This document shows, piece by piece, positions 676 through 21,953 of a stretch of 61,158 bases of DNA (positions within the stretch are counted from its first letter, which is position 1; every line of letters begins with the position of its first letter). The notes under the pieces are model-generated. The model had not been told where the DNA came from, did no database searches, and worked only from the letters and a program-made list of their open reading frames with translations. Both the position numbers and the translations under genes were made by a program. The stretch comes from Opitutaceae bacterium (GTDB lineage Bacteria > Verrucomicrobiota > Verrucomicrobiia > Opitutales > Opitutaceae), in NCBI GenBank assembly GCA_035569995.1, contig DATMLS010000045.1, positions 1 through 61,158 of the forward strand, read 5' to 3'.

Positions 676-753
<78 letters not shown>

Positions 754-1021: not shown

Positions 1022-3817
1022 ATGACGCCCGAAGCCCAGGCCAGGGAGAAGATCGACGCACAGCTCGTTGCGTGCGGCTGGGTCGTCCAGGATTACAAGG
1101 CCGTGGATTTCACCGCTGGCCATGGCATCGCCCTCCGTGAAGTCCCGCTTAAGACAGGGCCCTGCGATTACTTGCTCCTCTTGAACCGTCAGGCCGTCGG
1201 TGTGATTGAGGCCAAGAAAGAAGGCACCACGCTCTCTGTTGTTGCGGATCAGTCTGCCCGCTACGCCACCAGCGTGCCCGATTTTCTCGCTGCCGAACTC
1301 ACTGGTAAACTCCCGTTTCTCTACGAATCCACCGGCGTCGAAACCTATTTCCGCGACGAGCGCGACCCTGACCCGCGTTCACGGCTCGTGTTCAGCTTTC
1401 ACCGCCCTGAAACGCTCGCCGAATGGGTTACCGAGCCCGACACCCTCCGTCGTCGTCTCGCCGCACTCCCCACCGCGCATCCTCTTACCACCGCCGGTAT
1501 GCGCGACTGTCAGATCGAAGCCATTGGCGGCTTGGAAAAGTCCTTCGCTGAAAACCGCCCCCGAGCACTCATCCACATGGCCACAGGTGCTGGCAAGACC
1601 TACACCGCTTGTGCCTTCACGTACCGACTCATCAAATATGCCGGTGCGCGGCGCGTCCTTTTCCTCGTGGATCGGGCCAATCTTGGTGAACAGGCCCGCG
1701 ATGAGTTTGCCCGTTTTCGCACGCCAGACACCGGCCGGCTCTTCACCGAGCTCTACAACGTCCAACATCTGACCTCGTCGCACATCGACGATGTCTGCCG
1801 CGTCACCATCTGCACCATCCAGCGTCTTTACTCCATTCTGCGCGGAGAAGACCTGGCGGAAGGCGCGGACGATCTCTCCGGCGCGGAACTATCGGCGGCC
1901 CTAGGCATCACGCGCACGCGCGAGGTCGCTTACAACCCCGTCGTGCCCATCGAGAAGTTCGATTTCATCGTCACCGATGAGTGTCACCGCTCCATTTACA
2001 ATCTGTGGCGTCAGGTGCTCGAATATTTCGACGGATTCCTCATCGGCCTCACTGCTACGCCCGCGCCACAGACCATCGCCTACTTCCACCAAAACCGCGT
2101 CGCTGAATACAACCACGAGCGCGCCGTCGCCGATGGCGTCAACGTCGGCTATGATGTCTATCGCATAAAGACCCGCGTCACTGAGCAGGGTGGGAAGGTG
2201 GAAAAAGGCTTTCTCATCGACCACCGCAGTAAGGCTTCCCGTGCCCAGCGCTCGGCCGTGCTTGCTGATGACCTCGACTACACACCCGTTGATCTCGATC
2301 GCTCCGTTGTCGTGCCCGATCAGATTCGCACGCTTTTGCGCACCTACCGCGACGCCGTCTTCACCGAACTTTTTCCCGGCCGCACGCTCGTGCCAAAAAC
2401 CCTTATCTTCGCCAAGGACGACTCCCACGCTGAGGACATCGTCCACCTTTGCCGCGAAGTCTTTGGCCGGGGCAACGATTTTTGCAAAAAGATCACCTAC
2501 CAGGCCAAACACCCTGTCACTGGCAAGCCCGCCAAGTCGAAGGAGCTCATCAAGGAGTTTTGCCTTTCCCCTACGCTCCGCATTGCGGTGACCGTGGACA
2601 TGATTGCCACCGGCACAGATATCAAGCCGCTTGAAGTCCTCATCTTCCTGCGCGACGTCCGCAGCCGCGTCTATTTTGAGCAGATGAAAGGCCGCGGCAC
2701 CCGCGTCCTCACGCCTACCGATCTGCAATCCGTCTCCGGTGCCGATGCCCGGGCCAAGACCCACTTCGTCATCGTCGATGCGGTTGGCGTCTGCGAGAGC
2801 GACAAGACCGAGTCCCGCCCGCTTGACCGCCAGCCCACCGTCCCGCTCAAAACCCTCCTCCAGCGTGTCCTGTTTCCCGGCGGCCGCGACGAAGACACCC
2901 TCACCACGTTGGCGGCGCGCCTCGCCAGGCTCGACCGCGAACTCGACCAAACTCAACGCCAACTGGTCGCCGCCGCTTCCGGTGGGCATACGCCCGCCAC
3001 GCTGGCCGGAGCGCTTCTACGCGCCTGCGATCCTGACGCCATTGCTGAAAAGGCCGCCGGCAAAATCGGCGCCGAACCGCAGGAAATCGCATCGGAGAAA
3101 TTAGAAGCCGCTCACCAGCAACTCATCACTGATGCCTGTGCGCCCTTCGACAAAGTCGCGCTGCGCAACACGCTCGACAGCCTCAAACAGGAAACCGAAC
3201 AAACCCTCGACATTTACACCCCCGACGAAGTCCTCTCAGCCGGCTTCGATGCCGCTGCAAAAGCGAAAGCGGCTGGCCTCGTCCAAGCTTTCCGCGACTA
3301 CATCGCCAACAAGCGCGCCGAGATTGCCGCGCTCCAGATTTTGTACAGCCGCCCCTATCGCCAACGCCTCACCGAGCCGATGCTGAAGGAGCTGGAGAAG
3401 AAATTGCGCGACAACCATGCGGCCTGGACTGAAGACCGTCTCTGGGACGCCTTCGCTGTTACTTCGCCTGTGAAGGTGAAAGGCCGCTCGCAACTCGGCC
3501 GCTTTGCCGATCTTGTCTCTCTTGTGCGTTTTGCCCTCGAACAACAACCCATTCTCGAACCGTTCGCCGATTCCGTCCAGGGTCGCTTCGATTCATGGCT
3601 TGCGCAAAAAACAAAAAACGGCACGGCCTTCACAGCCGATCAACACGCATGGCTTGAGCTTATCCGCGATCACATCGCCACGAGTCTCAGTATCGAACCC
3701 GATGATTTCGACTTCGCGCCGTTCAGCCAGCGCGGTGGCCTGGGCAAAGCTCACCAACTTTTTGGCGAGCAGCTACCCAAACTTCTCGATGAACTCAACG
3801 AGGTGCTCGCAGCTTAA
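1022..3817 (+). CDS. hsdR: type I restriction enzyme R subunit (HsdR)
   Basis: N-terminal HsdR_N-type PD-(D/E)xK motif (GPCDYLLL...GVIEAKKEG). SF2 helicase Walker A HMATGAGKTYT and DEAH box VTDECHRS. Sits co-directionally upstream of hsdS and hsdM. Confidence 0.85.
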   Translation: MTPEAQAREKIDAQLVACGWVVQDYKAVDFTAGHGIALREVPLKTGPCDYLLLLNRQAVGVIEAKKEGTTLSVVADQSARYATSVPDFLAAELTGKLPFLYESTGVETYFRDERDPDPRSRLVFSFHRPETLAEWVTEPDTLRRRLAALPTAHPLTTAGMRDCQIEAIGGLEKSFAENRPRALIHMATGAGKTYTACAFTYRLIKYAGARRVLFLVDRANLGEQARDEFARFRTPDTGRLFTELYNVQHLTSSHIDDVCRVTICTIQRLYSILRGEDLAEGADDLSGAELSAALGITRTREVAYNPVVPIEKFDFIVTDECHRSIYNLWRQVLEYFDGFLIGLTATPAPQTIAYFHQNRVAEYNHERAVADGVNVGYDVYRIKTRVTEQGGKVEKGFLIDHRSKASRAQRSAVLADDLDYTPVDLDRSVVVPDQIRTLLRTYRDAVFTELFPGRTLVPKTLIFAKDDSHAEDIVHLCREVFGRGNDFCKKITYQAKHPVTGKPAKSKELIKEFCLSPTLRIAVTVDMIATGTDIKPLEVLIFLRDVRSRVYFEQMKGRGTRVLTPTDLQSVSGADARAKTHFVIVDAVGVCESDKTESRPLDRQPTVPLKTLLQRVLFPGGRDEDTLTTLAARLARLDRELDQTQRQLVAAASGGHTPATLAGALLRACDPDAIAEKAAGKIGAEPQEIASEKLEAAHQQLITDACAPFDKVALRNTLDSLKQETEQTLDIYTPDEVLSAGFDAAAKAKAAGLVQAFRDYIANKRAEIAALQILYSRPYRQRLTEPMLKELEKKLRDNHAAWTEDRLWDAFAVTSPVKVKGRSQLGRFADLVSLVRFALEQQPILEPFADSVQGRFDSWLAQKTKNGTAFTADQHAWLELIRDHIATSLSIEPDDFDFAPFSQRGGLGKAHQLFGEQLPKLLDELNEVLAA

Positions 3818-3852: not shown

Positions 3853-4437
3853 ATGTCAGACCTAAATTCAGATCCTGAATTGAAAGCAATTGACCAGGTG
3901 ATCCAAGCCCTCGGCTCGCTCCAGCAAGACGCTCGTGAGCGAGTCGTCAGTTACGTGTTTCAACGGCTTGGCCTTTCAACACTAAATACATTTGCCCAAC
4001 CAACCCTTGAACAGCCGCCCCCACCGTCGTCGGTGACAGCGCTGCCAAGTTCGCCTCAACCTGCCGGGGGCGTGCATGATATTCGTAGCTTTAGAACCGC
4101 AAAGAGTCCAAAAACTGATAATGAAATGTCAGCTCTGGTGGCATACTACCTCAAACACCTAGCACCACCCGAAGAACGCAAGGATTCGATCGCGACTGCC
4201 GACATCGAAAAATACTTCGTTCAAGCAAATTACCCGCTTCCAAAACGACCGCGATTGACTCTGGGTAACGCGAAAAACGCGGGATACTTCGACCCGGCTG
4301 AACGTGGGTTCTTTAAATTGAATCCTGTTGGCCATAACCTAGTGGCGCACGGTCTTGGGAAAGATGGAGGCGATAGCGTGTCGAGCCGGATCAAGAAAAC
4401 GAGAAAGAGTGGGTCAAAGTCAAAGAAACGGAGTTAG
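3853..4437 (+). CDS. hypothetical protein with a basic C-terminal tail, between hsdR and hsdS
   Basis: ORF with a plausible RBS (aaggagataaacATG). Lower GC than hsdR. Its stop (TAG) abuts the ATG of the next ORF. No recognisable motif. Confidence 0.5.
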   Translation: MSDLNSDPELKAIDQVIQALGSLQQDARERVVSYVFQRLGLSTLNTFAQPTLEQPPPPSSVTALPSSPQPAGGVHDIRSFRTAKSPKTDNEMSALVAYYLKHLAPPEERKDSIATADIEKYFVQANYPLPKRPRLTLGNAKNAGYFDPAERGFFKLNPVGHNLVAHGLGKDGGDSVSSRIKKTRKSGSKSKKRS

Positions 4438-5274
4438 ATGAATTTGACTCAAGACAGTTGGAGCGATCTGAACTTCAAGCTTGCAGCGCTGAAGTCCGGC
4501 TTAGCGAAATGCAGGGCCGTAAACGTGAACACGCTTCGATTAAAGGACGCTGCACAAGCGGCGATCCAACAATATTTCCGCCAATGTCGCCCGGAGGCGC
4601 AGCAGTCAGGTATCGCCGAGGCCGCGCTCGAATCTTTGGATCAAGGGTTTCAAAATTTACTGAAGTTCACCAACGGCAACAATCCTGTACGTCGCTATAA
4701 AGGTGAGTTGTCTGCGATTTTATCAGCAAAAACTTTGATTGATGCTGAGCGAGAGAAGCGGATTGGCGAATCTCAGGTGCGCAAAAACGCAACCAGCGTT
4801 TTTCTTAGCGCGCAAGAGGGGACGATTCTGAAAACGCTGGAGCAGATTGTCCCATTGGCCGCGTTATCATACCGCCAAGCCTGCATAGATCTAGCAACTC
4901 GTGACCGTATCTCGTATCGTGGTACGGCTAACGAATTGCGCGAGGCTCTCCGCGAACTGCTTGACCATTTAGCACCCGATGCAGACGTAGAAAACCAACA
5001 GGGATTCAAGTTTGAAGATGGTCAAAAGAAGCCGACTATGAAGCAGAAGGTTCGATTCATACTTCGGGCACGTGGGCTTCCGGCCACGGCTGGTGAAGCG
5101 CCCGAGAATGCGGTGTTACTGGCTGACGAAATGGTCGGCAAGTTGACCAGGTCGACTTACAACCGGTCCTCCATTTCTGCGCATGTATCGACTGCTCGCA
5201 GCGAAGTGTGCCAAATGAAAATGTATATCGACAGCGTGCTTGCCGAACTTCTTGAAATTCATCGTGAACACTGA
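4438..5274 (+). CDS. putative HEPN / Abi_C-like protein (candidate abortive-infection RNase)
   Basis: C-terminal R-x5-H motif (TYNRSSISAHVS) typical of HEPN/Abi_C. Start codon abuts the stop of the upstream ORF (TAGATG). 3' end overlaps hsdS. Confidence 0.45.
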   Translation: MNLTQDSWSDLNFKLAALKSGLAKCRAVNVNTLRLKDAAQAAIQQYFRQCRPEAQQSGIAEAALESLDQGFQNLLKFTNGNNPVRRYKGELSAILSAKTLIDAEREKRIGESQVRKNATSVFLSAQEGTILKTLEQIVPLAALSYRQACIDLATRDRISYRGTANELREALRELLDHLAPDADVENQQGFKFEDGQKKPTMKQKVRFILRARGLPATAGEAPENAVLLADEMVGKLTRSTYNRSSISAHVSTARSEVCQMKMYIDSVLAELLEIHREH

Positions 5275-6514
5275 AAGCCCCAAGATTAGCATTTGCCAAC
5301 TCCCGAACGGTTGGCGTCGCGTCGCAGTGAGAGACATGGCCGACTCCATTCAATACGGCCTCACCGCGAGCGCAATCAACCGGAAGTATGGCCCACGATT
5401 TCTCCGCATCACCGATATTCAGGACGGTCGTGTTAATTGGAGCGAGGTTCCATCTTGCGACATTCCGAAAGCGGACATTCCGAAGTACCGACTGTCATCC
5501 GGCGACTTGGTGTTTGCGCGTACCGGAGCGACCACCGGAAAGAGTTTTCTCATTGGCGATTGCCCTGAAGCGGTGTTCGCGTCTTACTTGATCCGTGTTC
5601 GCGTTTCGGCAGACGTTGACTCGCGCTATCTCTCGGCATTTTTCCAAAGCCCGGATTATTGGCGGCAAATTGAGGATGGCAAACGTGGCATTGGGCAGCC
5701 AAACGTTAACGGGACGGTGCTCGGCGAAGTTCAGTTTCCCGTCGCGCCTCTCCACGAACAACGCAGGATCGTGGCGGAGATCGAAAAGCAATTCACGCGC
5801 TTGGACGCTGGAGTCGCCGCGTTGCGACGAGTGCAAGCCAATCTCAAACGCTACCGCGCCGCCGTCCTCAAAGCCGCCTGCGAAGGCCGCCTCGTTTCAT
5901 CGAGCGTAAAATGGCCACGTCGGAAACTTGGCGAACTGACTTCTAAGATTGGCAGTGGCTCGACACCGCGAGGTGGCGCTGATGTCTATCGTGATGCTGG
6001 TATCCCGCTAATTCGTTCGATGAACGTTCATTCCACTGGCTTTCGCTTCGACGGACTCGCGCATATCGACGAAACTGAAGCCGAAAAACTGGATCATGTA
6101 ACCGTTGAGGCAGGTGACGTATTGTTGAACATCACTGGAGCATCGATTGGACGAGTAACGACTGCTCCTGCCTCGCTTGATGGCGCCCGTGTTAATCAAC
6201 ACGTCTGCATAATTCGTCCAAACCAAGGACTAGTTTCTGCGTTTCTTGCGATATTCCTCGCGTCGCCAATCGAGCAAGCGCGTGTCTTGAATGTCCAAGT
6301 TGGTGCAACGCGTCAGGCGCTCACCAAATCGATGATCGTAAACTGGGAAGTTCCAGTCCCGCCCCTCGCCGAGCAAACGCGAATCGTAGCGGAAGTGGAG
6401 CGGCGCTTGAGTGTAGTGGAGGAGTTAGAAACAGTCGTGACCGCCAACCTCCAGCGCACCATTCGCCTCCGCCAGTCCATCCTTCAAGAAGCATTTACGG
6501 GAAATTTTACTTAA
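5240..6514 (+). CDS. hsdS: type I R-M specificity subunit (HsdS), two target recognition domains
   Basis: LPNGW N-terminus. Conserved central helix (AEIEKQFTRLDAGVAALRRV...) and a C-terminal repeat (AEQTRIVAEVERRLSVVEELE). The true start may be the in-frame GTG at 5264 or the ATG at 5336. Confidence 0.8.
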   Translation: MPNFLKFIVNTESPKISICQLPNGWRRVAVRDMADSIQYGLTASAINRKYGPRFLRITDIQDGRVNWSEVPSCDIPKADIPKYRLSSGDLVFARTGATTGKSFLIGDCPEAVFASYLIRVRVSADVDSRYLSAFFQSPDYWRQIEDGKRGIGQPNVNGTVLGEVQFPVAPLHEQRRIVAEIEKQFTRLDAGVAALRRVQANLKRYRAAVLKAACEGRLVSSSVKWPRRKLGELTSKIGSGSTPRGGADVYRDAGIPLIRSMNVHSTGFRFDGLAHIDETEAEKLDHVTVEAGDVLLNITGASIGRVTTAPASLDGARVNQHVCIIRPNQGLVSAFLAIFLASPIEQARVLNVQVGATRQALTKSMIVNWEVPVPPLAEQTRIVAEVERRLSVVEELETVVTANLQRTIRLRQSILQEAFTGNFT

Positions 6515-6520
6515 CTTAAT

Positions 6521-7837
6521 ATGCCAATTATTCCACCAGCGATCACTATCGACAAAGGACCGTCAAGAGACGCAGAGGTCGCCGCGAGATGCCACGAGAT
6601 TCAAACCGGGTTGGGCTTAGCGGAAGTCCCGGAGTTTGAACAATTGCAACGTGTAGGAATGGCGGTTCGCCTTGCTCTCCATATACGCGGACTCGCGTCA
6701 GTAAATTATGAAACGTTGAAATTGGTCGCGAACCATTATCTCAGCATTCCAGTTGGCGGCATTAAGAGCATACTCGAAGTATTGGCCGAGGTTGAATTTG
6801 TTAAGCTCCAAACAGAGGGGAAAACGATCAAAGCAGTTATTCCCAATGTCCCATACTACGAGACGCTCTATGAGACGCTCGGAACGTATGCAGCTGGAGC
6901 GAAATTCAATGAAGCAGAGCAGTTGAGCGTCGAACTCCTCAGCAGGCTCTCCAAAGCACCCGAGAAAGTTGACACTCTAATTACGCACTTTGGAGTCGAG
7001 ACGAAGTTATTCAATCGCGCATTTGATCTCGGTAAACAAGGTGCTTACTTGCGGGTCCACCGAAGCCGAGGGCGCGACGTTGCGCTCAGCCCGACATACT
7101 TCTCGGAGAACTCCGAAATCTACGCCGACATGGTTTCCGGAGTTGGCTCGAAGCAGGTCAAGAAACTGATGGACGCGCTTCACAGCATGCAGGGTGTTCC
7201 GTTGTCGATAATCCAAAAGCAAAAGGAAATTGCTGGTGTGAAATTCACTGACGAAGAATTAAACCTGTTGCTTCGCCTCGCTCAAGACGGTGCGGTCAAA
7301 CCGCCGAGCATCACCACGGCCCACTCCGGCGAGCAGTTCTTTTTATTCACCCCGACCCCTTCGGGGGCCGCGCTTGCTGTAACGAAGAGGGACATTTATG
7401 AAAAGGCGATGGCGATCGTGGCGGCGGTGCGCCAAGGCCAGTTCCTTGCAAGTCGCTTCGCAATTCGTTCTCCCGGAGCAGTGCTGTATAAGCTCAAAGA
7501 GAACATGAAACTCGCGAAGGCTACGACCGAAGCCTCGCAACAATATCGGAAACTCGTGGTTCATCGTGTCGCACGCTTGGTCGACCTCGGCGGCGGCTTC
7601 AGTCAGCTCCAGATAATCGACACTCTAGAGAATCGAGAGGCCCTTTCGATTGCCTACAAACTGGTTGATGCCGGAGTTGCAGTCGGCACTGAGGTCGACG
7701 AATCAGCGAGGCAAGCACTTCAGCAAGAGCACTCATTTGTGGAATCCCTCGTCGCATCTGGTGCCCTGCAACGGCGGGGCAAGGTGACGCTCACGCACGA
7801 CCAACAACTTGAGATGGAAACCCTCTTCCTAAAATAA
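6521..7837 (+). CDS. hypothetical protein (438 aa), between hsdS and hsdM
   Basis: Tight spacing to hsdS (6 nt) and to the next ORF (4 nt). Protein-like composition. No recognisable motif. Confidence 0.55.
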   Translation: MPIIPPAITIDKGPSRDAEVAARCHEIQTGLGLAEVPEFEQLQRVGMAVRLALHIRGLASVNYETLKLVANHYLSIPVGGIKSILEVLAEVEFVKLQTEGKTIKAVIPNVPYYETLYETLGTYAAGAKFNEAEQLSVELLSRLSKAPEKVDTLITHFGVETKLFNRAFDLGKQGAYLRVHRSRGRDVALSPTYFSENSEIYADMVSGVGSKQVKKLMDALHSMQGVPLSIIQKQKEIAGVKFTDEELNLLLRLAQDGAVKPPSITTAHSGEQFFLFTPTPSGAALAVTKRDIYEKAMAIVAAVRQGQFLASRFAIRSPGAVLYKLKENMKLAKATTEASQQYRKLVVHRVARLVDLGGGFSQLQIIDTLENREALSIAYKLVDAGVAVGTEVDESARQALQQEHSFVESLVASGALQRRGKVTLTHDQQLEMETLFLK

Positions 7838-7841
7838 GCTT

Positions 7842-8936
7842 ATGATGAAAGACCGTGACCAAAAGCAAAAGGCGCTGAAACTCTCAGTCGCGAACCGGTG
7901 GTTCCCTCAACTTGAGGTGGATGTCCAGCCTGGCCGAGCATTGAAGGAGCGGGCCCCGCTCGTTACTGATCTCGACGTTTTCTCTTCCATTCCCGATCAG
8001 TTTAAGGGCTTCCGCTCGGTCGTGTTCGATTGCAAAACGAAGGCAAAGGAATCACCAGTCAATCGTGCGTTGTGGTTGGCCGGTGTTCTCGAAAGGCTAC
8101 AAGCAGACCAAGGTTTCTGCATCCTGAAGAAGGACCAGATTCAACTTGACCACTGTTTGATGGCGACACGCCTCAACGTTGTTCTACTGACTGAAGACGA
8201 GTTCGACCTCTACGCGAAAGTGACGTGCCCTCGCTACGGCGGTCCTCTCGGCAATGTCAGTGAGATGGATGCTTGGGAACAGCTCTTCTCAATCCCGTCC
8301 CGGTTCCCGAAACTGGATTCAGGCATCCAGTTCATTCGGTCGACATTTTGGATGGTAGATGACTCCGCTGAAGCGTGTCGAAGATGCCTCGCGTGCTTAA
8401 AAGGACTCCACCCCGAGATGGACCCGTCAAAGCCGGAACACATTGCTGTTTTTCTCGAGTTCTGCGCGGTGTTCGCGCGTTCGCTGGCGGTTGTAGTGTG
8501 CCAGATTTTCAAATCCTACATGCTTCCCGCGAAACAAACAGACCTCGCGGACGCATTACTAGTCATGCTTTACGGTGGACGCGAAGCTTACGAGCACCGG
8601 AATGAGCTTTTCAAACTAGTGAAGGGGAAAGGCACTGACCAAGTGCCGCCGGATTTGTCGCTTCCCGAGTGGGACCGCTTTCTCCAACTGGTAAGGCAAT
8701 GCTTGGATGCCCCGTTCGAAATACAACATGCGCCGTTGATACTTCGGGAAGCGGCATTCTCCGCGCTACGGGGAGACACAGCGAGGGCCTTTGCGAAGAC
8801 CTTGTGTGCGGAGTCACCTCAGGGTGCGCGATTTGCGCTGTTGATTCCAACATATTTGGGAAGAGCGGCAAAACTCCCGCCGGAATTCGAAAAGGCGGCA
8901 GACGAGATTCTTATACCTTTGATTCCCGTGAAATGA
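7842..8936 (+). CDS. hypothetical protein with a possible N-terminal PD-(D/E)xK nuclease-like motif
   Basis: LVTDLDVF...VVFDCKTK resembles a D...(D/E)xK motif. Co-oriented and tightly packed with 6521..7837. Located between hsdS and hsdM. Confidence 0.5.
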   Translation: MMKDRDQKQKALKLSVANRWFPQLEVDVQPGRALKERAPLVTDLDVFSSIPDQFKGFRSVVFDCKTKAKESPVNRALWLAGVLERLQADQGFCILKKDQIQLDHCLMATRLNVVLLTEDEFDLYAKVTCPRYGGPLGNVSEMDAWEQLFSIPSRFPKLDSGIQFIRSTFWMVDDSAEACRRCLACLKGLHPEMDPSKPEHIAVFLEFCAVFARSLAVVVCQIFKSYMLPAKQTDLADALLVMLYGGREAYEHRNELFKLVKGKGTDQVPPDLSLPEWDRFLQLVRQCLDAPFEIQHAPLILREAAFSALRGDTARAFAKTLCAESPQGARFALLIPTYLGRAAKLPPEFEKAADEILIPLIPVK

Positions 8937-9018: not shown

Positions 9019-10488
9019 ATGACCGCCCCCGCGCTAGTTCAGAAGCTATGGAATTACTGCAACATCCTGCGGGATGACGGGCTGTCTTATGGCGATTACG
9101 TCGAGCAACTTACGTTTCTGCTCTTCCTCAAGATGGCCGATGAGCAGAGCCGCGCGCCGTTCAATAAGCCGTCGCCCATCCCGAAGGGCTTCGGCTGGGA
9201 TGTGCTGGTGAAGATCGATGGCGATGATCTCGAAACACACTACCGTCACACGTTGGAGGAGCTCGGCAAGCGAGCCGGGATGCTCGGAATCATTTTCCGC
9301 AAGGCGCAGAACAAAATCCAAGACCCCGCCAAACTTCGCCGCCTCATCGCCGACCTGATCGACAAGGAAGAATGGTCCTCGCTCGAAGTCGATGTGAAGG
9401 GCGACGCCTATGAGGGCTTGCTCGAAAAGAACGCTGCCGACGTTAAGGGCGGTGCTGGCCAATACTTCACGCCTCGCGCACTCATCGCAGCAATGGTGGA
9501 CGTAATCGCCCCCCAGCCCGGCCAAACGATTTGCGATCCTGCCTGCGGCACTGGTGGCTTTCTCCTCGCCGCATACACGTATCTTTCCGATCCGAAAAAC
9601 AACCAACTCGACCGCGCACAAAAGAAAAAGCTCAAGACCGGCACGCTTTTCGGAATCGAGCTTGTGGACAGCGTCACGCGCCTCTGCGCGATGAACATGA
9701 TGCTGCACGGCATAGGCGGTGAGTCCGACACCATCGATCTGCCTGTCGTCACCAAGGACGCGCTTGCCGGCAAGCACGGCGAATATGATCTCGTCCTCGC
9801 CAATCCGCCCTTCGGAAAAAAGAGCAGCGTTACCATCACAAACGAAGAGGGCGAGGTCTCCAAGGAGTCGCTCGTCATCAACCGCGACGATTTCTGGGCG
9901 ACCACGAGCAACAAGCAGCTCAATTTCCTCCAGCACATCTTTACCATCCTCAAGCAGCACGGCCGAGCGGCCGTGGTATTGCCCGATAATGTTCTCTTCG
10001 AAGGTGGTGCTGGCGAGACCATCCGACGCCAGCTTCTCCAGCAAGCCGACGTCCACACGCTCCTTCGCCTGCCCACGGGAATTTTCTACGCGCAAGGCGT
10101 GAAAGCCAATGTGCTCTTCTTCGACCGTAAGCCCGCCGCCGACAAAAAGGCGTGGACGGAAAAACTTTGGATTTACGATCTCCGCACGAACAAACACTTC
10201 ACGCTCAAAGAAAATACGCTGAAGCGCACCGACCTCGACGACTTCGTGAAGTGCTTCAACGTCAAGGATCGCACGAAACGGAAGGAGTCCGAACGATTCA
10301 AAGCCTTCGCTTACGAAGAGCTCCTTAAGCGCGACAAAGTGAACCTGGACATCTTCTGGCTCAAGGATGACGCCCTTGAAGACAGTGCCAATCTACCCGC
10401 GCCTGGCATCATCGCCACCGACATCATCGCCGACCTCGAAGCCGCTCTGGAACAGTTTAGTGAAATAGAATCAGACCTGAAGGAGTAA
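9019..10488 (+). CDS. hsdM: type I R-M N6-adenine DNA methyltransferase subunit (HsdM)
   Basis: HsdM N-terminal helix domain. SAM-binding motif DPACGTGGFL. Catalytic motif LANPPFG. Confidence 0.9.
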   Translation: MTAPALVQKLWNYCNILRDDGLSYGDYVEQLTFLLFLKMADEQSRAPFNKPSPIPKGFGWDVLVKIDGDDLETHYRHTLEELGKRAGMLGIIFRKAQNKIQDPAKLRRLIADLIDKEEWSSLEVDVKGDAYEGLLEKNAADVKGGAGQYFTPRALIAAMVDVIAPQPGQTICDPACGTGGFLLAAYTYLSDPKNNQLDRAQKKKLKTGTLFGIELVDSVTRLCAMNMMLHGIGGESDTIDLPVVTKDALAGKHGEYDLVLANPPFGKKSSVTITNEEGEVSKESLVINRDDFWATTSNKQLNFLQHIFTILKQHGRAAVVLPDNVLFEGGAGETIRRQLLQQADVHTLLRLPTGIFYAQGVKANVLFFDRKPAADKKAWTEKLWIYDLRTNKHFTLKENTLKRTDLDDFVKCFNVKDRTKRKESERFKAFAYEELLKRDKVNLDIFWLKDDALEDSANLPAPGIIATDIIADLEAALEQFSEIESDLKE

Positions 10489-10494
10489 GCTAAC

Positions 10495-11109
10495 ATGTCC
10501 GACTTCTCCAATCTACCAGTCGATGAGCGCATCTTCTTAGACATTTGGGAGATTCCGGGCAACAGTGAGAAAATAATTCCAATCGACTTTTCTGACCCAA
10601 AAGAGGCAGCAATTTTTCAATCAATCACGTCGATAGCTAATCTTGCGATTGCATGTGACATGTTGTTCACGACGCTTGATCGGTCAGTGGCTACTGAGTT
10701 GGCAAAAGCGGTGGAGAGACGCATTTTGTCAGCTGTAGCGTTGTTTCCGTTCCGTTTTCCAGTGAACACGATTTTGAAACTGCCGTCAGAGCTAGATGCA
10801 TGGAAGGCTTGGAGTGGAAAACCAGCAGATGGAGTTCACTCCAATCTCGAAACGATACTAAATATTGTCTGGGCTCAGCGACTCGGCGATTATCAGACGG
10901 ACCTGATAACCAGCATGAAACTCTCGTTGGACAGTCGATTCAATGCATACGGCCCAGTCGTGTTTCTTACGAAACGTTATCTCTCTCATAAGACCGGAAT
11001 CCCAATTGATCCACAATCATGTTTTCCAGAAGTAGGATTGGAGCATTTCGCGCAGTACAACTATTATCTTATGGGTATTTTTCAGAGCGTGATGGCGTAT
11101 GCGAAATAG
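10495..11109 (+). CDS. hypothetical protein (204 aa), AT-rich
   Basis: ORF begins 6 nt after hsdM. Markedly lower GC than its neighbours. Confidence 0.5.
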   Translation: MSDFSNLPVDERIFLDIWEIPGNSEKIIPIDFSDPKEAAIFQSITSIANLAIACDMLFTTLDRSVATELAKAVERRILSAVALFPFRFPVNTILKLPSELDAWKAWSGKPADGVHSNLETILNIVWAQRLGDYQTDLITSMKLSLDSRFNAYGPVVFLTKRYLSHKTGIPIDPQSCFPEVGLEHFAQYNYYLMGIFQSVMAYAK

Positions 11110-11149
11110 GAACTGATTCCTCTCCGATAAGCCGAATCTAGAAACCCGG

Positions 11150-12058
11150 ATGAAAGCTCTCTCACCATCCTTCGTTGAACTAACTCAGGACGCCCTGTTG
11201 AAAGCCTTTTGGTTCAAGCCCAGCCTCCGTCTGTTTCTCCTACAGCATAACATCAGCGAGTCGGCGCTTGCCCAGTGGCATTCAGAGCAATCGAAACGGG
11301 AATACATCGGCTGGCTTTGGCCGCGGCTGGTGAAAAACGAGAAGGGGCAAAATGCGATTTTGTCGATGGCCCGATCCCTGGCAGAAATGAAGGACTTTCC
11401 AGATCTCGAACGGAAAGAGGATACGAAGCAACAAATCCAGGAGGCGAAACGAGCTGTCGCCCGACTGCGCGAAGCAGTCCTCGCAATCAATGAGACAATT
11501 TACGAGGGGAAGGAAGCGGAAAAGCGCCGGCGAATAGCGCAGGAAGCCACTGCCGCCCGACTCGCTTCACAGCAATCGCTTGAAAGACTTCAGGCCCGGC
11601 TTGCTGAACTCACGTCGCAATTGGGCACTACCGCGGGCGGCTACGCTTTCGAGGAGTGGTTCTACGATCTTGCGATTTATTTCGAACTGGATGCTCGACA
11701 GAGTTATAAGGCTGGCGGCCGGCAGATCGATGGAGCCCTTACAATTGAAGGAACGACGTTCCTTCTGGAGACAAAATTTACGAAAGAGATGATTAGCCCC
11801 GAGGCGATCGACTCGTTCATGGCCAAAATCCACGCAAAGGCTGACAACACGATGGGCTTCCTTGTGTCGATCGCGGGCTTCAACGAGGGAGCTATCCGAG
11901 CTGCATCGAAGGAGCGGACGCCAATGCTGCTTCTCGACCAAGGACATATTTTCAACTTGATCCTCCGTGGCATCATGACGCTTCCGCAGGTTGTGGCCCG
12001 AATCAAGCGGCACGCTTCTCAGACCGGTTCGGCGTATTTGGCCGCAACCGATTTTTAA
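11150..12058 (+). CDS. coiled-coil protein with a C-terminal Mrr-like restriction-endonuclease (PD-(D/E)xK) domain
   Basis: C-terminus YAFEEWFYDL...QIDGALTIEGTTFLLETKF matches the Mrr_cat pattern (D...ExK). Central region is a heptad-rich coiled coil. Confidence 0.6.
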   Translation: MKALSPSFVELTQDALLKAFWFKPSLRLFLLQHNISESALAQWHSEQSKREYIGWLWPRLVKNEKGQNAILSMARSLAEMKDFPDLERKEDTKQQIQEAKRAVARLREAVLAINETIYEGKEAEKRRRIAQEATAARLASQQSLERLQARLAELTSQLGTTAGGYAFEEWFYDLAIYFELDARQSYKAGGRQIDGALTIEGTTFLLETKFTKEMISPEAIDSFMAKIHAKADNTMGFLVSIAGFNEGAIRAASKERTPMLLLDQGHIFNLILRGIMTLPQVVARIKRHASQTGSAYLAATDF

Positions 12059-12455: not shown

Positions 12456-12908
12456 ATGCGCGTTTATGAAGCTTCAATCAGCTACAACCTCGTCAAACTC
12501 GGCGAAAACCTGACAGTCAACACGCCGGCAAAGACCGTCGAATATCTTGAATCTGCATTCGCGGTCCACCCAATGCAGGAAGCTTTCTGGGTGATCCTGC
12601 TTGATCGGAAAAATCGCGCTTTAGGCCGCGTGATGATCTCTCTCGGAACACTGTCGAACACACTTGTGCATCCGCGCGAGGTCTTCAAACCAGCGTTTCT
12701 GGCCTCGGCTTCCGCGGTTATCGTTGCCCATAATCACCCGAGTGGTGATCCCGCGCCGAGCGCGGCGGACATCCAGGTCACGCGTCAACTGCGTGAGGCT
12801 GCAAAGATTCTCGACATAATCCTCATCGATCATGTCATCGTTGGGCATGCCGAGAGCGATCCCCTGGGCGTGGGTTATTACTCCTTTAGGGCGACGGGGC
12901 TCTTGTGA
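12456..12908 (+). CDS. radC: RadC-like JAB/MPN domain protein
   Basis: JAMM motif HNHPSGDPAPSAADIQVT and overall RadC architecture. RadC genes are common cargo of integrative elements. Confidence 0.85.
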   Translation: MRVYEASISYNLVKLGENLTVNTPAKTVEYLESAFAVHPMQEAFWVILLDRKNRALGRVMISLGTLSNTLVHPREVFKPAFLASASAVIVAHNHPSGDPAPSAADIQVTRQLREAAKILDIILIDHVIVGHAESDPLGVGYYSFRATGLL

Positions 12909-13149: not shown

Positions 13150-15114
13150 ATGGTCCTCCATCCATTTGCCGTTATTCGGCTACACCTCAGCCTCGCCGCG
13201 GTCGGCATTGGCCTAGCATTGACTAGTTGCCAACACGCCGTTCCTAAGCACGCGATGTTGCATCCACTTCCCATCACCGGCACTGGTCAGAATGATCAAC
13301 CGTCGTCACCTGCCGCTGGCAGCGGTGCCGACGAATCCGATCCGCACATATATTATATCGGATCTCAAAGCATCCTGACTTTTGATAAGCAGGGAACGCC
13401 AGGGGCTGGAACTCTTAATATTCCGGTTTATGGAAGTCATTTGTTCTCCACAATCCATAACAAAAATAATACCGATCAACCGCAAATAACCCTACAGATT
13501 ACAGGAACGGTGCCAATTTCCGAGGACGACTATGATTGGGACCGGTCTACGGATCTCACTGCACAGACTGAGGACGAGCAGTTAATCAAGATCCTGCCGT
13601 CCTATGTGAGTCGCCTCCACACCGGAGATCGGCTTGAAGTCGAAGTGGGCATTGGCAGGAGCTCGCAGGCGTACTATATGAGACGAACTTTCACGATGTA
13701 TGCTGTCGATGATTATCGCAAATTGTTGGCTGGGCGAGTGCCCATTGGCGACATAAATGCATTTCCCTTGCCTGATGAAGAGACGCGCTACCTTTTTGGC
13801 CCTACGATCACCAGTGAATACTACGTGGTGGAGCTAACTCTGAGGAATTCCGGTTCGCAAGACGAGCTGGTGAACATAGGGATGATTAGCGCCGATGGGA
13901 GCGCGATTGTTCAGCCGGATGGCACAGACAAGACACTCAAGCAGACCTATACGGTTCCAATTGAAATCCCGCCCCAGAGCCCCTTACAAGTATATGCAGT
14001 GCTTGACGGGCAGGGAGACAAACAATCACGTTCTTGGATTTTTCGAAGCCTTGAGTTCGTTGGGGCACTTGGCACTGCTGTGGTGACAAGCTACACTCAT
14101 ACGCCGGCAGATGTGGTCAAGGGTTTTACCCTTTTCACTGGAGTTGGCATTCCTGCCGGCGATAAGCTGTGGCCTGATCAATGGCCAAGATATAAGAGCA
14201 ATTTGGTCAACTTTAGCATGCCCGAATTGGTTAAAGTGCCCAAGCAATCAACGACCACCCCAAAATTCATATTCTTTTCCAAGAAGAATCTTGGGCTGTT
14301 AATATCTGATCCAACTTTGTTCAGAAATGGCTCCTGGTTTGGTCACCAATCGCTGGGTCCAATCAACGAAGCAACCTCCCCATCGGTACGTGTAGTCACC
14401 CTGGCCTTCGACAACCTCGACATTCCTTTTGAAATAATTACAAGCCCGGCGGTGGTCGATCTGCACGAAACCTTGAATCTCCTCCAGAGTGATTTGGCCT
14501 CTCATCTCGCACGCCTCCAAACAACGCAAAAACTGTGGAGCGCTGGCGCTCAATTCGCCGATGGCGTGGATTTCGCCACGCTCAAGGCGATCTCTCAAAA
14601 GCTTTCCGCTCTCCCCGGCAGAGATCCCTTGAAAGCCGTGCCCGAAACTGATGATCTGAAGCAGTCTGTTACCCAACTCAGCGTTCTAGCCGCTTACCTG
14701 GCGCAGGCCGGCAATCCCAAGAGCCCTTTGTTCACAAGCCTGCTCACGGACAAAAACCAACCCGTGGCAAGCTTGTCCGATTTGCTACCGCTACTCTCCG
14801 AAGTGAGTCTGCTTCAATTTCGCCTGTCTGCCGGCGCTGACGTCGGTCCCCTGCAGGAACGCGCGACGGCTATACAGAAGCAGGTGGACGCAAGTCGTGC
14901 TCTTTTTGAATTCCTAATGCAAGCGGCGACGATATTTGCGAGTCCAGATTTTACCAAAACGTTGGATAATTGGCCGACGAAAGCGGCGGATCTCAATAGC
15001 TCGTCCGCACATGATATGATGGTCACCGACTTTACCATCTTGCGCCGCGAGCGAACTTTCCAGGCATTACAAAATTTTGCGCCTGACGATTACAAGAAGA
15101 TAGTCGCTCCCTAG
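13150..15114 (+). CDS. large predicted lipoprotein of unknown function (654 aa)
   Basis: Signal peptide with a lipobox-like LALTSC. AT-rich relative to the rest of the window. Confidence 0.55.
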   Translation: MVLHPFAVIRLHLSLAAVGIGLALTSCQHAVPKHAMLHPLPITGTGQNDQPSSPAAGSGADESDPHIYYIGSQSILTFDKQGTPGAGTLNIPVYGSHLFSTIHNKNNTDQPQITLQITGTVPISEDDYDWDRSTDLTAQTEDEQLIKILPSYVSRLHTGDRLEVEVGIGRSSQAYYMRRTFTMYAVDDYRKLLAGRVPIGDINAFPLPDEETRYLFGPTITSEYYVVELTLRNSGSQDELVNIGMISADGSAIVQPDGTDKTLKQTYTVPIEIPPQSPLQVYAVLDGQGDKQSRSWIFRSLEFVGALGTAVVTSYTHTPADVVKGFTLFTGVGIPAGDKLWPDQWPRYKSNLVNFSMPELVKVPKQSTTTPKFIFFSKKNLGLLISDPTLFRNGSWFGHQSLGPINEATSPSVRVVTLAFDNLDIPFEIITSPAVVDLHETLNLLQSDLASHLARLQTTQKLWSAGAQFADGVDFATLKAISQKLSALPGRDPLKAVPETDDLKQSVTQLSVLAAYLAQAGNPKSPLFTSLLTDKNQPVASLSDLLPLLSEVSLLQFRLSAGADVGPLQERATAIQKQVDASRALFEFLMQAATIFASPDFTKTLDNWPTKAADLNSSSAHDMMVTDFTILRRERTFQALQNFAPDDYKKIVAP

Positions 15115-16057: not shown

Positions 16058-16104
16058 GCAAACTCCGTCCGCTGCGCTCCCGGAGTTTGCACAAGTGCGG
16101 CCCT
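16058..16104 (+). promoter_or_regulatory. candidate oriT: 10-bp inverted repeat followed by a MOBQ-like nic-site sequence
   Basis: GCAAACTCCG-(13 nt)-CGGAGTTTGC is immediately followed by ACAAGTGCGGCCCT, which resembles the RSF1010 nick region GTAAGTGCG|CCCT. It lies between the divergent mobC and mobA genes. Confidence 0.5.
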
Positions 16105-16227
16105 GCGGGCGGCGCGTGCGCTGCGGCGCACGTCTGCCATTGGCGCAAGCGCCTTGCGTTGCGCAAAAAAGTTTCTCACCCGCGCACCCGCGGGAAGTCT
16201 CGGAAAGCTGCTAGACTATGGTCTAGC

Positions 16228-17280
16228 ATGAGAAACTCTTTTCATTTGAACATGGCCGCGCACTCGCGTTCGCACGGCCACAGCGCAGCGGCCAAAGTGG
16301 CCTACGTCACTGCAAGTCGCGGACGCGACGTGTGGGTTGGCAAGACCCACGATTATTCGCGGAAGAAGGGCGTCACGCGCTCGGCATGCGTAAATTACGA
16401 AGGCACGCCAAAAGAGTTGGCGCGCTTGATGGATACAACCGAAACGCGCCGAAACTCGACTGTTTGCCGGGAATTGATTTTTGCTCTTCCGCACGGATTG
16501 CCGGAGGAACAGCGCTGGGAACTTGCTTTCCGTCTCGGCGAGACAGTCGCCACGCGTTACGGCGTAGCCGGCGTTGTTGCATTGCACGAACCATCCGCCA
16601 AGGGCGACCGGAGAAATGACCACGCGCACATCGTCTTCTCTACGCGAAAAATAGAGGACGGCGAGCTCACTACGAAGACACGTGTGCTCGACGACCGAAA
16701 GACCGGCGCGGGTGAAGTGAAATGGCTGCGCGCTGAAAGCGCGCGACTGATAGGGGAAGCGCTCGCTGAGGTTGGACGCACCTTAGAGATCCCCGCGTGG
16801 GATCACCGCAGCTATGCCGACCGCGGAATTGATCAGCCAACAACGCGGCATGAAGGCGTGCGCGGTCGAGCACTCGCGCGCAAAGGCCGCGCCACAGTTT
16901 TTTCCCGAGACAACCAAGTAATACGCTCGGCCCTTGAGGAAACGAGAAAGTTAGAAAGCGAAATCGCAAATGAATACGTTAACAACATCATCGCAGCTCG
17001 CCGACCTACAAAAGGAAAACCACGAGCTGAAAGACACATTGAAGAACTTGCGCGAGAACCTAGCAAAGCTCGCGGGGGACAGCCCGTTCGTGAAAGTGGG
17101 ACCATGGCTCTTCCTCTTCACGGACATTCGGAGGATCAAAGCAAACGAGCAGGGCCGCCTGGACATACTCAACGAAACCGAGGCCTTCGGCGAGGTCTTG
17201 GTGCAAGACTTGGAAAACTTGGTCTCAGCGCACTATCGAAAGGCGCGAGAGAACTCGGACTAACACCTGACACGTTCTAA
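16228..17280 (+). CDS. mobA: MobA/MobL-family relaxase (MOBQ)
   Basis: N-terminus FHLNMAAHSRSHGHSAAAKVAYVTASRG matches the relaxase motif I region. Histidine triad motif NDHAHIVFSTR. The start is taken at the internal ATG at 16228; the upstream extension of ORF 16087 is improbable. Confidence 0.8.
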   Translation: MRNSFHLNMAAHSRSHGHSAAAKVAYVTASRGRDVWVGKTHDYSRKKGVTRSACVNYEGTPKELARLMDTTETRRNSTVCRELIFALPHGLPEEQRWELAFRLGETVATRYGVAGVVALHEPSAKGDRRNDHAHIVFSTRKIEDGELTTKTRVLDDRKTGAGEVKWLRAESARLIGEALAEVGRTLEIPAWDHRSYADRGIDQPTTRHEGVRGRALARKGRATVFSRDNQVIRSALEETRKLESEIANEYVNNIIAARRPTKGKPRAERHIEELAREPSKARGGQPVRESGTMALPLHGHSEDQSKRAGPPGHTQRNRGLRRGLGARLGKLGLSALSKGARELGLTPDTF

Positions 17281-21733: not shown

Positions 21734-21782
21734 ATACAAAATAACTGTTAATCACTTGGTCACTGGTTCGATCCCAGCCCGG
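21734..21782 (+). repeat. attR: truncated tRNA-Asn 3' half (right copy of the direct repeat)
   Basis: A 49-bp copy of 705..753 with 1 mismatch. It lacks the 5' half of the tRNA, so it is not a functional tRNA gene. Confidence 0.8.
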
Positions 21783-21953
21783 GCAGCCAGTCCAGCCAAT
21801 TATCCAGGCTGTTCTGGCCGTATTTTTCTAACCAATCTGCACGGTTGGAAAAAGCCTTTGATATTGTAAGTGATTTCCAAAGGGAATTTTGCTTAAATCA
21901 CTCACGTTATTTATCCGAAGCGCAGAGGCCAGTAAATCGAAGTTAATCCCCCC

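Follow-up and report, generated by a model that had tools for sequence, protein, structure and literature searches.

A putative two-protein nuclease module carried between hsdS and hsdM of a type I restriction–modification operon in an Opitutaceae bacterium

The 61,158-nt stretch of DNA analysed here (contig DATMLS010000045.1 of the Opitutaceae bacterium assembly GCA_035569995.1; hereafter the window, to which all coordinates refer unless another locus is named) carries a type I restriction–modification (R-M) operon in which two genes without annotation are lodged between hsdS and hsdM. They are called A (6521..7837, plus strand; 438 aa, ATG start) and B (7842..8936, plus strand; 364 aa, ATG start). 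The upstream partner, A, is predicted to consist of four tandem winged-helix domains, and B of an N-terminal PD-(D/E)xK domain followed by an all-helical C-terminal domain. On balance, we favour the view that A and B form a self-contained two-protein nuclease module, most likely devoted to defence against phages or plasmids, which is carried as cargo in the hsdS–hsdM slot and is not a subunit of the R-M enzyme.

The genes of the operon are co-directional on the plus strand, in the order hsdR, two small open reading frames (ORFs), hsdS, A, B, hsdM and two further ORFs. The slot is bounded upstream by the specificity subunit gene hsdS (5336..6514, plus strand; Methylase_S, E 5.4e-20) and downstream by the methyltransferase gene hsdM (9019..10488, plus strand; N6_Mtase, E 1.6e-68, together with HsdM_N), and these are the flanks proposed in the first-pass annotation, which was made from the sequence alone. 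The TAA stop codon of hsdS (6512-6514) is separated by 6 nt from the ATG of A at 6521, the stop codon of A (7835-7837) by 4 nt from the ATG of B at 7842, and the stop codon of B by 82 nt from the ATG of hsdM at 9019, so that the two tightly packed ORFs of 438 and 364 aa described in that annotation, with gaps of 6 and 4 nt, are exact in every coordinate. On public contigs with identical proteins hsdS starts at 5336 (392 aa), which is likely to be its true start, rather than 5240, the start of the longest ORF. This longest ORF begins with TTG, 96 nt before 5336, and overlaps the preceding 278-aa ORF by 35 nt.

The G+C content (GC) of A (0.527; 0.583 at third codon positions, GC3) and of B (0.536; GC3 0.600) is lower than that of hsdM (0.563; GC3 0.727) and hsdR (0.601; GC3 0.704). 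The difference, already pointed out from the sequence, is modest and is clearer in GC3; hsdS is likewise low (GC 0.548, GC3 0.557). Consensus scans for an internal promoter or terminator between the cassette and the hsd genes gave nothing better than shuffled sequence, and an Rfam scan of positions 1-22000 returned a tRNA and no other family. As no promoter, terminator or RNA signal lies between the cassette and the hsd genes, the simplest reading is that A and B would be co-transcribed with them. The possibility that the cassette is a mobile unit with its own ends was rejected, since neither direct nor inverted repeats of any significance were found around 6521-8936.

Both ORFs are genuine genes and evolve under purifying selection. 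The ratio of non-synonymous to synonymous substitution rates (dN/dS) of B is 0.03-0.06 against relatives that are 90-94% identical; for A, the proportion of non-synonymous differences (pN) is ~0.13-0.15 and that of synonymous differences (pS) is saturated at ~0.83. Identical A and B proteins are found on 8 contigs from different samples. A word-indexed protein search retrieved 205 relatives of B and 406 of A, all unnamed or labelled 'hypothetical', with lengths kept at ~364 and ~435 aa, respectively. A profile search with the alignment of B found 370 clusters (50% identity, E<=1e-3) among 1.84 billion representatives; every one is ~360-430 aa long, and none is fused to another domain. The low dN/dS of B, the pN of A far below its pS and the conserved lengths exclude a single disrupted hsd pseudogene, the outcome that the first-pass annotation had itself named as fatal to its proposal: the ORFs are intact, and their length is steady across hundreds of homologues.

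Neither protein falls into a recognizable family, as had been suspected. There is no match to A or B in Pfam (E<=0.01), PADLOC-DB v2 (E<=1), NCBIfam (E<=1) or PHROGs; the release of PADLOC-DB searched, v2.0.0, also contains the PDC candidate models, for example PDC-S02. Searches of these libraries with distant members of the families were equally negative.

The structure of B was modelled with AlphaFold 2 (AF2) from an alignment of 55 sequences, with a mean predicted local distance difference test score (pLDDT) of 92.1 and a predicted template modelling score (pTM) of 0.91. In the model, residues 5-117 follow the order alpha-beta-beta-beta-alpha-beta-alpha-beta, and residues 118-360 are all-helical. 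The nuclease domain (residues 1-117; 7842..8192, plus strand) has the alpha-beta-beta-beta-alpha-beta core of the PD-(D/E)xK fold, with the catalytic D...(D/E)-x-K pattern on strands beta-2 and beta-3. The motif T42-D43-L-D45-V (7965..7979), which includes the first acidic catalytic residue, stands at the start of beta-2 (strand 42-52), and D63-C64-K65 (8028..8036), the (D/E)xK part, at the end of beta-3 (strand 56-63); the full motif reads F-D63-C64-K65-T-K. In an alignment of 104 sequences that reaches down to ~25-35% identity, D43, D45, D63, C64 and H104 are invariant (104/104), and K65 is present in 98. Structural matches of B include FokI, the BspD6I small subunit, N.BspD6I, AspBHI, MspJI and NucS. 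The first-pass annotation had judged the pattern DLDVF...VVFDCKTK compatible with a restriction-endonuclease-like fold and had proposed structure prediction as a check; the predicted fold and the motif conservation agree with it. Residues 1-117 are thus confirmed, at the level of the model, as a PD-(D/E)xK (restriction-endonuclease) fold with an intact motif, and B is presumably catalytic.

B and five distant members gave no profile match to described PD-(D/E)xK families, such as Mrr_cat, NERD, NucS and DUF4263, in Pfam, NCBIfam or PADLOC, and nothing meaningful was found when family profiles were compared with the sequences of the PDB, where a single chance-level match (E 0.0075) concerned an unrelated transporter ATPase. 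The C-terminal helical domain (residues 118-364; 8193..8933, plus strand) contains conserved YGG and LPEW motifs. Its structural matches are weak and non-specific, and by that search it is neither EndoIII-like nor HEPN-like. A reading of this domain in terms of END nucleases or HEPN was also rejected at the level of residues: the HEPN-resembling R247-x4-H252 is poorly kept, H252 being found in 31/104 sequences and R247 in 61/104.

The AF2 model of A (pLDDT 75, pTM 0.65) displays four successive units composed of three helices and a hairpin. Unit 1 (residues 40-108; 6638..6844, plus strand) is modelled as helix-helix-helix-strand-strand with pLDDT 83-94. Unit 2 (residues 131-189; 6911..7087, plus strand) comprises helices 131-143, 150-157 and 161-174 and strands 178-182 and 185-189 (pLDDT ~88-93). 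Unit 3 (residues 210-275; 7148..7345, plus strand) ends in the conserved stretch VKPPSI...FFLFTPTPSGAA, and unit 4 (residues 289-365; 7385..7615, plus strand) comprises helices 289-308, 318-328 and 338-347 and strands 351-357 and 360-365. The winged-helix pattern, three helices and then a beta-hairpin wing, is therefore found four times in tandem, and A is, according to the model, a four-fold winged-helix protein. Its mean column identity is 69%. The invariant residues are P261, P262, T266, G270, F274, F276, P278 and P280 for unit 3, and R290, E294, R304-Q305-G306, T335 and E337 for unit 4. The stretch VKPPSI...FFLFTPTPSGAA (residues ~259-287) is highly conserved yet modelled with low confidence, which would fit a segment that becomes ordered only upon binding of a partner.

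Foldseek searches with A returned RPC62 (E 1.8e-5), TFIIIC tauB, the C-terminus of SelB and ESCRT-II; Cdt1 was also matched, and FokI weakly. The first four are themselves strings of winged helices. As the template modelling scores (TM-scores) are low (~0.15), A shares with these proteins the domain composition only and not the arrangement. Many winged-helix domains make protein contacts instead of binding nucleic acid, so that for A we can only infer binding to DNA (or RNA).

Homologous loci were collected from a one-genome-per-species scan (23 loci), a metagenome scan (69 loci), exact-protein look-ups, plasmid matches and one viral contig, giving a total of 76 non-redundant groups of B. A lies directly upstream of B in each of the 23 genome loci; the same holds for 58 of the 62 non-redundant groups for which at least 1.4 kb of upstream sequence is available. 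The four exceptions without A are L053, L085/L088 (B frameshifted), L086 (B partial) and a Bacillus cereus plasmid (B partial), so that B is decayed in three of them. In L053, an intact B stands beside a type IIG enzyme gene, and there is no A on the 7.5-kb contig. The ORFs adjoining B in L053, L085 and L086 were considered as diverged forms of A and rejected (hhalign probability <1%). When the neighbouring ORFs were clustered, no families other than A and B were common to more than three of the 23 neighbourhoods.

The 23 genome loci come from Beta- and Gammaproteobacteria, Verrucomicrobiota, Acidobacteriota, Armatimonadota and Gemmatimonadota, and include Syntrophorhabdus, Pseudomonas grimontii, Luteibacter anthropi and Castellaniella caeni. 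Over all sources the family ranges over Proteobacteria, Verrucomicrobiota, Acidobacteriota, Armatimonadota, Gemmatimonadota and Bacillota, and it is also present on plasmids. A–B travels as one unit across many bacterial phyla. One pair (A 54% and B 44% identical to those of the window) is found on the IMG/VR contig UViG_3300018005_000105 (L028, 662-6636), between the portal gene (DUF4055) and genes for MuF-like head-morphogenesis and scaffold proteins. Here a phage or prophage carries the pair as accessory cargo, in a 'moron' position. No homologue of B was found among 50,697 GenBank phage records, and this IMG/VR contig is the only one of its kind.

The genomic context was counted in the 53 non-redundant groups whose downstream sequence is long enough; neighbours were annotated from crude ORF calling, with Pfam and PADLOC run on a subset, and the metagenome contigs are short. 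Eleven groups are embedded in or attached to a type I R-M system (among them L002, with a degenerate hsdM). In three others (L030/31, L006 and L038) there are only hsdM fragments, directly after an intact B. Four groups (L052, L013, L053 and L085) adjoin a type IIG enzyme of ~1000 aa with HSDR_N, an Eco57I/MmeI methylase and TaqI_C. In this clade, of ~47-48% identity, it stands beside the A–B pair in L052 (6670-12241) and L013 and beside B alone in L053 (610-4940) and L085/L088. In the remaining 35 groups no R-M system was detected nearby, although this class may hide other defence genes. The neighbours of A–B also include nSTAND NTPases, toxin–antitoxin (TA) pairs and Fic, with relaxases and integrases in some loci; on a Burkholderia glumae plasmid the pair lies near DUF262 and DUF3696 genes and insertion sequence (IS) elements. 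Neighbours of these kinds are characteristic of defence loci or mobile elements.

The type I-embedded cases all belong to the clade in which B is at least 50% identical to that of the window. Their gene order is always hsdR-hsdS-A-B-hsdM, and in the relatives hsdM either overlaps B by 4 nt or follows it after 4 nt. The arrangement hsdS-A-B-hsdM is found in the window, L001/L035, L027, L033, L034, L007/L098 and L102, with hsdR identities of merely 52-75%. A–B is therefore embedded within a known multi-gene defence system, and this in more than one independent instance, and the co-occurrence proposed in the first-pass annotation as a check is observed: homologues do adjoin R-M and defence genes in other genomes.

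This constancy of position could mean that A and B are accessory subunits of the type I enzyme, working with HsdM2S as a second cleavage arm or as a regulator of restriction versus methylation. Conservation of hsdS-A-B-hsdM in at least 10 non-redundant loci, from Proteobacteria and Armatimonadota, would agree with such a role, as would the tight B–hsdM junction of the relatives and the fact that another clade adjoins a second kind of N6-adenine R-M enzyme, type IIG. We nevertheless find it very improbable, since 35 of the 53 loci have no hsd gene nearby, A–B survives intact beside decayed hsdM, operons closely related to this one function without A–B or with a different gene in the slot, the phylogenies of cassette and backbone disagree, and unrelated additional cargo can separate B from hsdM. 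There are no Hsd-related Pfam domains in A or B, and co-occurrence with hsd genes is far from obligate (11/53). The suggestion in the first-pass annotation that the pair works with the HsdMS complex thus finds no support. Its other suggestion, that of a pair using the operon in the manner of other R-M-embedded defence genes, agrees with the variable state of the slot elsewhere.

The hsdS–hsdM junction of this type I lineage, with the order hsdR-hsdS-hsdM, behaves as a recurrent cargo slot. On a Vibrio parahaemolyticus plasmid (L107, 404-3364) the slot is empty, hsdS and hsdM being ~50 nt apart, and on the Gemmobacter aquarius plasmid NZ_CP028920 (L106, 3503-8467) it is filled by a single GmrSD-like DUF262 gene. 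In L102 (6972-13984), a pair of HTH_3/Peptidase_M78 and DUF4411 genes is placed between B and hsdM, alongside A–B, and a DUF6602 gene forms further cargo at the same position in L063. By the identities of A and B, the window falls with L001, L033 and L027 (73-82% and 76-79%) against L007/L098, whereas by those of hsdM and hsdR L001/L033 fall with L007/L098 (79-80% and 75%) and the window with L027. This disagreement indicates that cassette and backbone have recombined with the gene order kept. Taken together, the majority of loci without hsd genes, the intact A–B beside decayed hsdM, the variable slot and the incongruent histories indicate that A–B is independent of Hsd.

Short hsdM fragments, mostly the first 40-110 codons, abut the stop codon of an intact B in loci without R-M. 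Fragments beside B are found in L002 (11092-11484), L030 (2746-2913), L031, L032/L063 (490-606), L006 (11924-12387) and L038 (1414-1548). In L063, the 5' fragment of hsdM is followed by the DUF6602 gene and then by a full hsdM. The fragments abutting B suggest that cargo is added at the B–hsdM junction by recombination that duplicates the 5' end of hsdM.

Recombination at this junction is also a hint that A–B might serve DNA metabolism outside defence, that is, repair, recombination or a function of a mobile element such as movement of the cassette. PD-(D/E)xK nucleases and multi-winged-helix proteins do occur in repair and replication, NucS and Cdt1 being among the structural matches, and one locus lies among housekeeping genes. 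Such a function is unlikely given the patchy, sporadic distribution of the family over phyla (370 clusters in 1.84 billion proteins), the variable contexts without conserved neighbours, and the lack of repeats flanking the cassette and of a recombinase associated with the pair.

The tight coupling of the two genes, with a winged-helix protein upstream of a nuclease, is also reminiscent of an addiction pair similar to a TA system, in which B would be the toxin nuclease and A its neutralizer or repressor, and which would serve mainly the stability of the island, plasmid or operon that carries it, not defence. Such pairs would be at home on plasmids, IS-flanked segments and integrative islands, where A–B is indeed found, and TA modules are present in the same operons. 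The sizes argue against this, as 438 and 364 aa far exceed those of typical TA components (~70-150 aa for type II), and A is a highly conserved four-domain protein and no simple repressor. No TA family of PADLOC or Pfam is matched by gene order and sizes. We therefore give this explanation little weight.

About one-third of the informative loci lie in or beside R-M systems of two types, and PrrC, which is embedded in type I R-M, offers a precedent for a guard or abortive-infection module with a logic similar to that of PrrC or PARIS. The pair would then be silent until a phage disables the R-M system, for example by means of DNA-mimic anti-restriction proteins, to which the winged-helix array might bind; B would thereupon degrade nucleic acid and abort the infection. 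The module has no methylase of its own, and A offers four domains of a DNA-binding type. Most copies of the pair, in contrast to PrrC, lie away from R-M, and A–B contains no ATPase or other known sensor domain; a guard function seems doubtful on these grounds. Still less probable, in our opinion, is a more specific form, in which the winged-helix array of A would bind DNA-mimic anti-restriction proteins (Ocr/ArdA-like) as a decoy or sensor, or would monitor the loss of R-M in another way, and then release B. If true, this would make the cassette a guard of a new kind, backing up both type I and type IIG R-M against phage counter-defence, and it would explain the repeated placement of the pair in or beside two classes of N6-adenine R-M enzymes.

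Defence genes embedded in type I R-M are already established, namely PrrC, the Rlo genes and TgvAB. The separation of hsdS from hsdM, called unusual in the first-pass annotation, is indeed uncommon, but the word overstates the case in view of TgvAB, PrrC, the guilt-by-embedding candidates and the other cargo of the slot. TgvAB, from VPI-2 of Vibrio cholerae, is a two-gene GmrSD-like system of type IV located inside a type I R-M operon; it requires both of its proteins for activity, does not require the Hsd genes, and has been proposed to complement R-M (PMC11411939). A–B resembles it in being two co-directional genes nested in a type I R-M operon, and a DUF262 gene, a likeness to TgvAB and GmrSD, occupies the exact A–B slot in the related Gemmobacter operon. 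A–B differs in its domains: neither DUF262 (a ParB-like NTPase) nor DUF1524 (HNH-type) was found in A or B with Pfam and PADLOC, B being of the PD-(D/E)xK type and A a winged-helix array, so that the pair does not belong to the GmrSD/TgvAB/BrxU type, defined by DUF262 and DUF1524.

PrrC is a single protein combining an ABC ATPase with an anticodon nuclease, and is almost exclusively embedded in type I R-M (10.1101/2024.01.29.577857). PrrC/EcoprrI and A–B share the position of a nuclease gene inside a type I R-M operon, where PrrC is kept latent and constitutes a second line of defence. In contrast to PrrC, A–B comprises two proteins, lacks an ATPase, is mostly found outside R-M and has no match to PrrC in PADLOC. 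The 'guilt-by-embedding' survey of Payne et al. (2024) reported 145 candidates and found embedded genes to be enriched for defence (10.1101/2024.01.29.577857). The HEC and PDC candidates of that survey are similar to A–B in that they are nested in multi-gene defence systems while their homologues are mostly non-embedded; A–B differs from them in that it has no match (E<=1) to the models of PADLOC-DB v2, which include PDC. Shedu (SduA) and END, PD-(D/E)xK defence nucleases with accessory sensing domains (PMC12191111), likewise count among the known systems most similar to A–B. The RefSeq accessions of the homologues are not mentioned in the searchable literature, and they are absent from those parts of the supplementary tables of 10.1101/2024.01.29.577857 that were covered. 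What is new here is the two protein families; their genomic role, as R-M-embedded defence candidates, is already known.

In Mrr (type IV) and in FokI and BspD6I (type IIS), recognition domains of the winged-helix type are combined with PD-(D/E)xK cleavage domains, and BspD6I illustrates that reader and cutter can be separate polypeptides. A–B has the same composition, winged-helix or CAP-like readers and a PD-(D/E)xK cutter. It is distinguished by reader and cutter that are always separate genes, by the lack of a match to Mrr_cat or any other Pfam family, and by the large extra helical domain of B.

In the module as we picture it, A would bind DNA, or a feature of invading DNA, through its four winged-helix domains, and would recruit or license B. 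The N-terminal PD-(D/E)xK domain of B (D43, D63-C-K65) would then cut DNA in a metal-dependent reaction, and its helical C-terminal domain would mediate assembly with A, regulation or both. It is from fold and synteny alone that we infer DNA binding by A and its interaction with B; the nuclease activity of B, the defence role and the mode of discrimination are likewise predictions. No methylase of its own accompanies the pair in most loci. Since the module almost never has a methyltransferase of its own, discrimination between self and non-self would have to lie in the target recognition of A or in activation upon infection. Embedding would bring co-transcription and co-transfer with the R-M genes, and it would also stabilize the cassette, as expression of hsdM must read through it. 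Within this nuclease-module reading, our preferred version, though little better than a guess, is a type IV-like enzyme split into a 'reader' and a 'cutter', as a divided Mrr or FokI/BspD6I might be. It is preferred on account of the building blocks, the GmrSD-type gene in the same slot in Gemmobacter and the precedent of TgvAB.

Several observations weigh against a self-contained defence module. No defence family, whether validated or candidate, is matched by either protein in PADLOC v2, Pfam or NCBIfam, the 35 groups without R-M nearby form the majority, many contexts show no recognizable defence gene, and in at least one locus, L101, the pair, with a shortened B, lies among housekeeping genes. 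In the most distant loci A is better conserved than B (42-48% against 33-38% identity), which would be unusual for a fast-evolving sensor. The same order of conservation in loci L011-L023 is the reverse of what sensor/effector pairs often show.

The operon as a whole lies in an island of ~21 kb, inserted in a tRNA-Asn gene and bounded by a 49-nt direct repeat, the copies of which are 98% identical. The left copy, attL (705..753, plus strand), contains the 3' half of the tRNA-Asn gene (676-750, plus strand), and attR (21744..21792, plus strand) repeats this half at the right end. A tyrosine integrase gene (20285-21643, minus strand; Phage_integrase, E 4.6e-11) is found just inside the right end, and the island also contains genes for a MobA/MobL relaxase (16087-17280), RadC (12456-12908) and an excisionase-like HTH_17 protein. 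Housekeeping genes (L25, Pth, SPFH/NfeD) lie beyond the right end. The island looks like an integrative mobilizable element, and the repeats, integrase and relaxase indicate that this element carries as cargo the R-M operon together with the three gene pairs inserted in it or attached to it. A 33-nt repeat (88% identical) is located just inside the two ends (796-828 and 21589-21621) and holds ACATTCCGGTT twice in tandem; these repeats may be arm-type binding sites of the integrase.

The hsdR gene (1022..3817, plus strand) of the same operon codes for a protein with ResIII, SWI2_SNF2, EcoEI_R_C and HSDR_N domains and a C-terminus of the EcoEI type. Between hsdR and hsdS, the two small ORFs (3853-4437 and 4438-5274, plus strand) form another two-gene cassette (3853-5274), composed of a 194-aa ORF without family and the 278-aa ORF, which matches pP_pnuc_1, a predicted pPIWI-associated nuclease family (E 1.1e-11), and PADLOC Aga_Nuclease (3.4e-8). 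This cassette is absent from the otherwise similar operon of L027. A third pair follows directly after hsdM (10495-12058). Its first member is a 204-aa ORF of GC 0.454 that belongs to no family, and its second, of 302 aa, has an Mrr_cat restriction-endonuclease domain at the C-terminus (E 1.9e-5) and a weak match to PADLOC PDC-S02. This pair is kept on the identical public contigs and is not present in other A–B loci. The island also contains two large genes: that at 13150-15114 encodes 654 aa without a family match in any library, and that at 17306-20149 (minus strand) encodes 947 aa with a weak AAA_16 match, possibly a STAND-like NTPase.

A–B is missed wholly by Pfam, NCBIfam, PADLOC and PHROGs, and RefSeq labels its members 'hypothetical protein'. 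The hsdS–hsdM slot could be mined for further systems. If a separate four-winged-helix 'reader' and PD-(D/E)xK 'cutter' are indeed what A and B are, the pair would provide a simple model for split recognition and cleavage. If it protects its hosts against phages or plasmids, it would represent a new and phylogenetically broad two-protein nuclease defence system.

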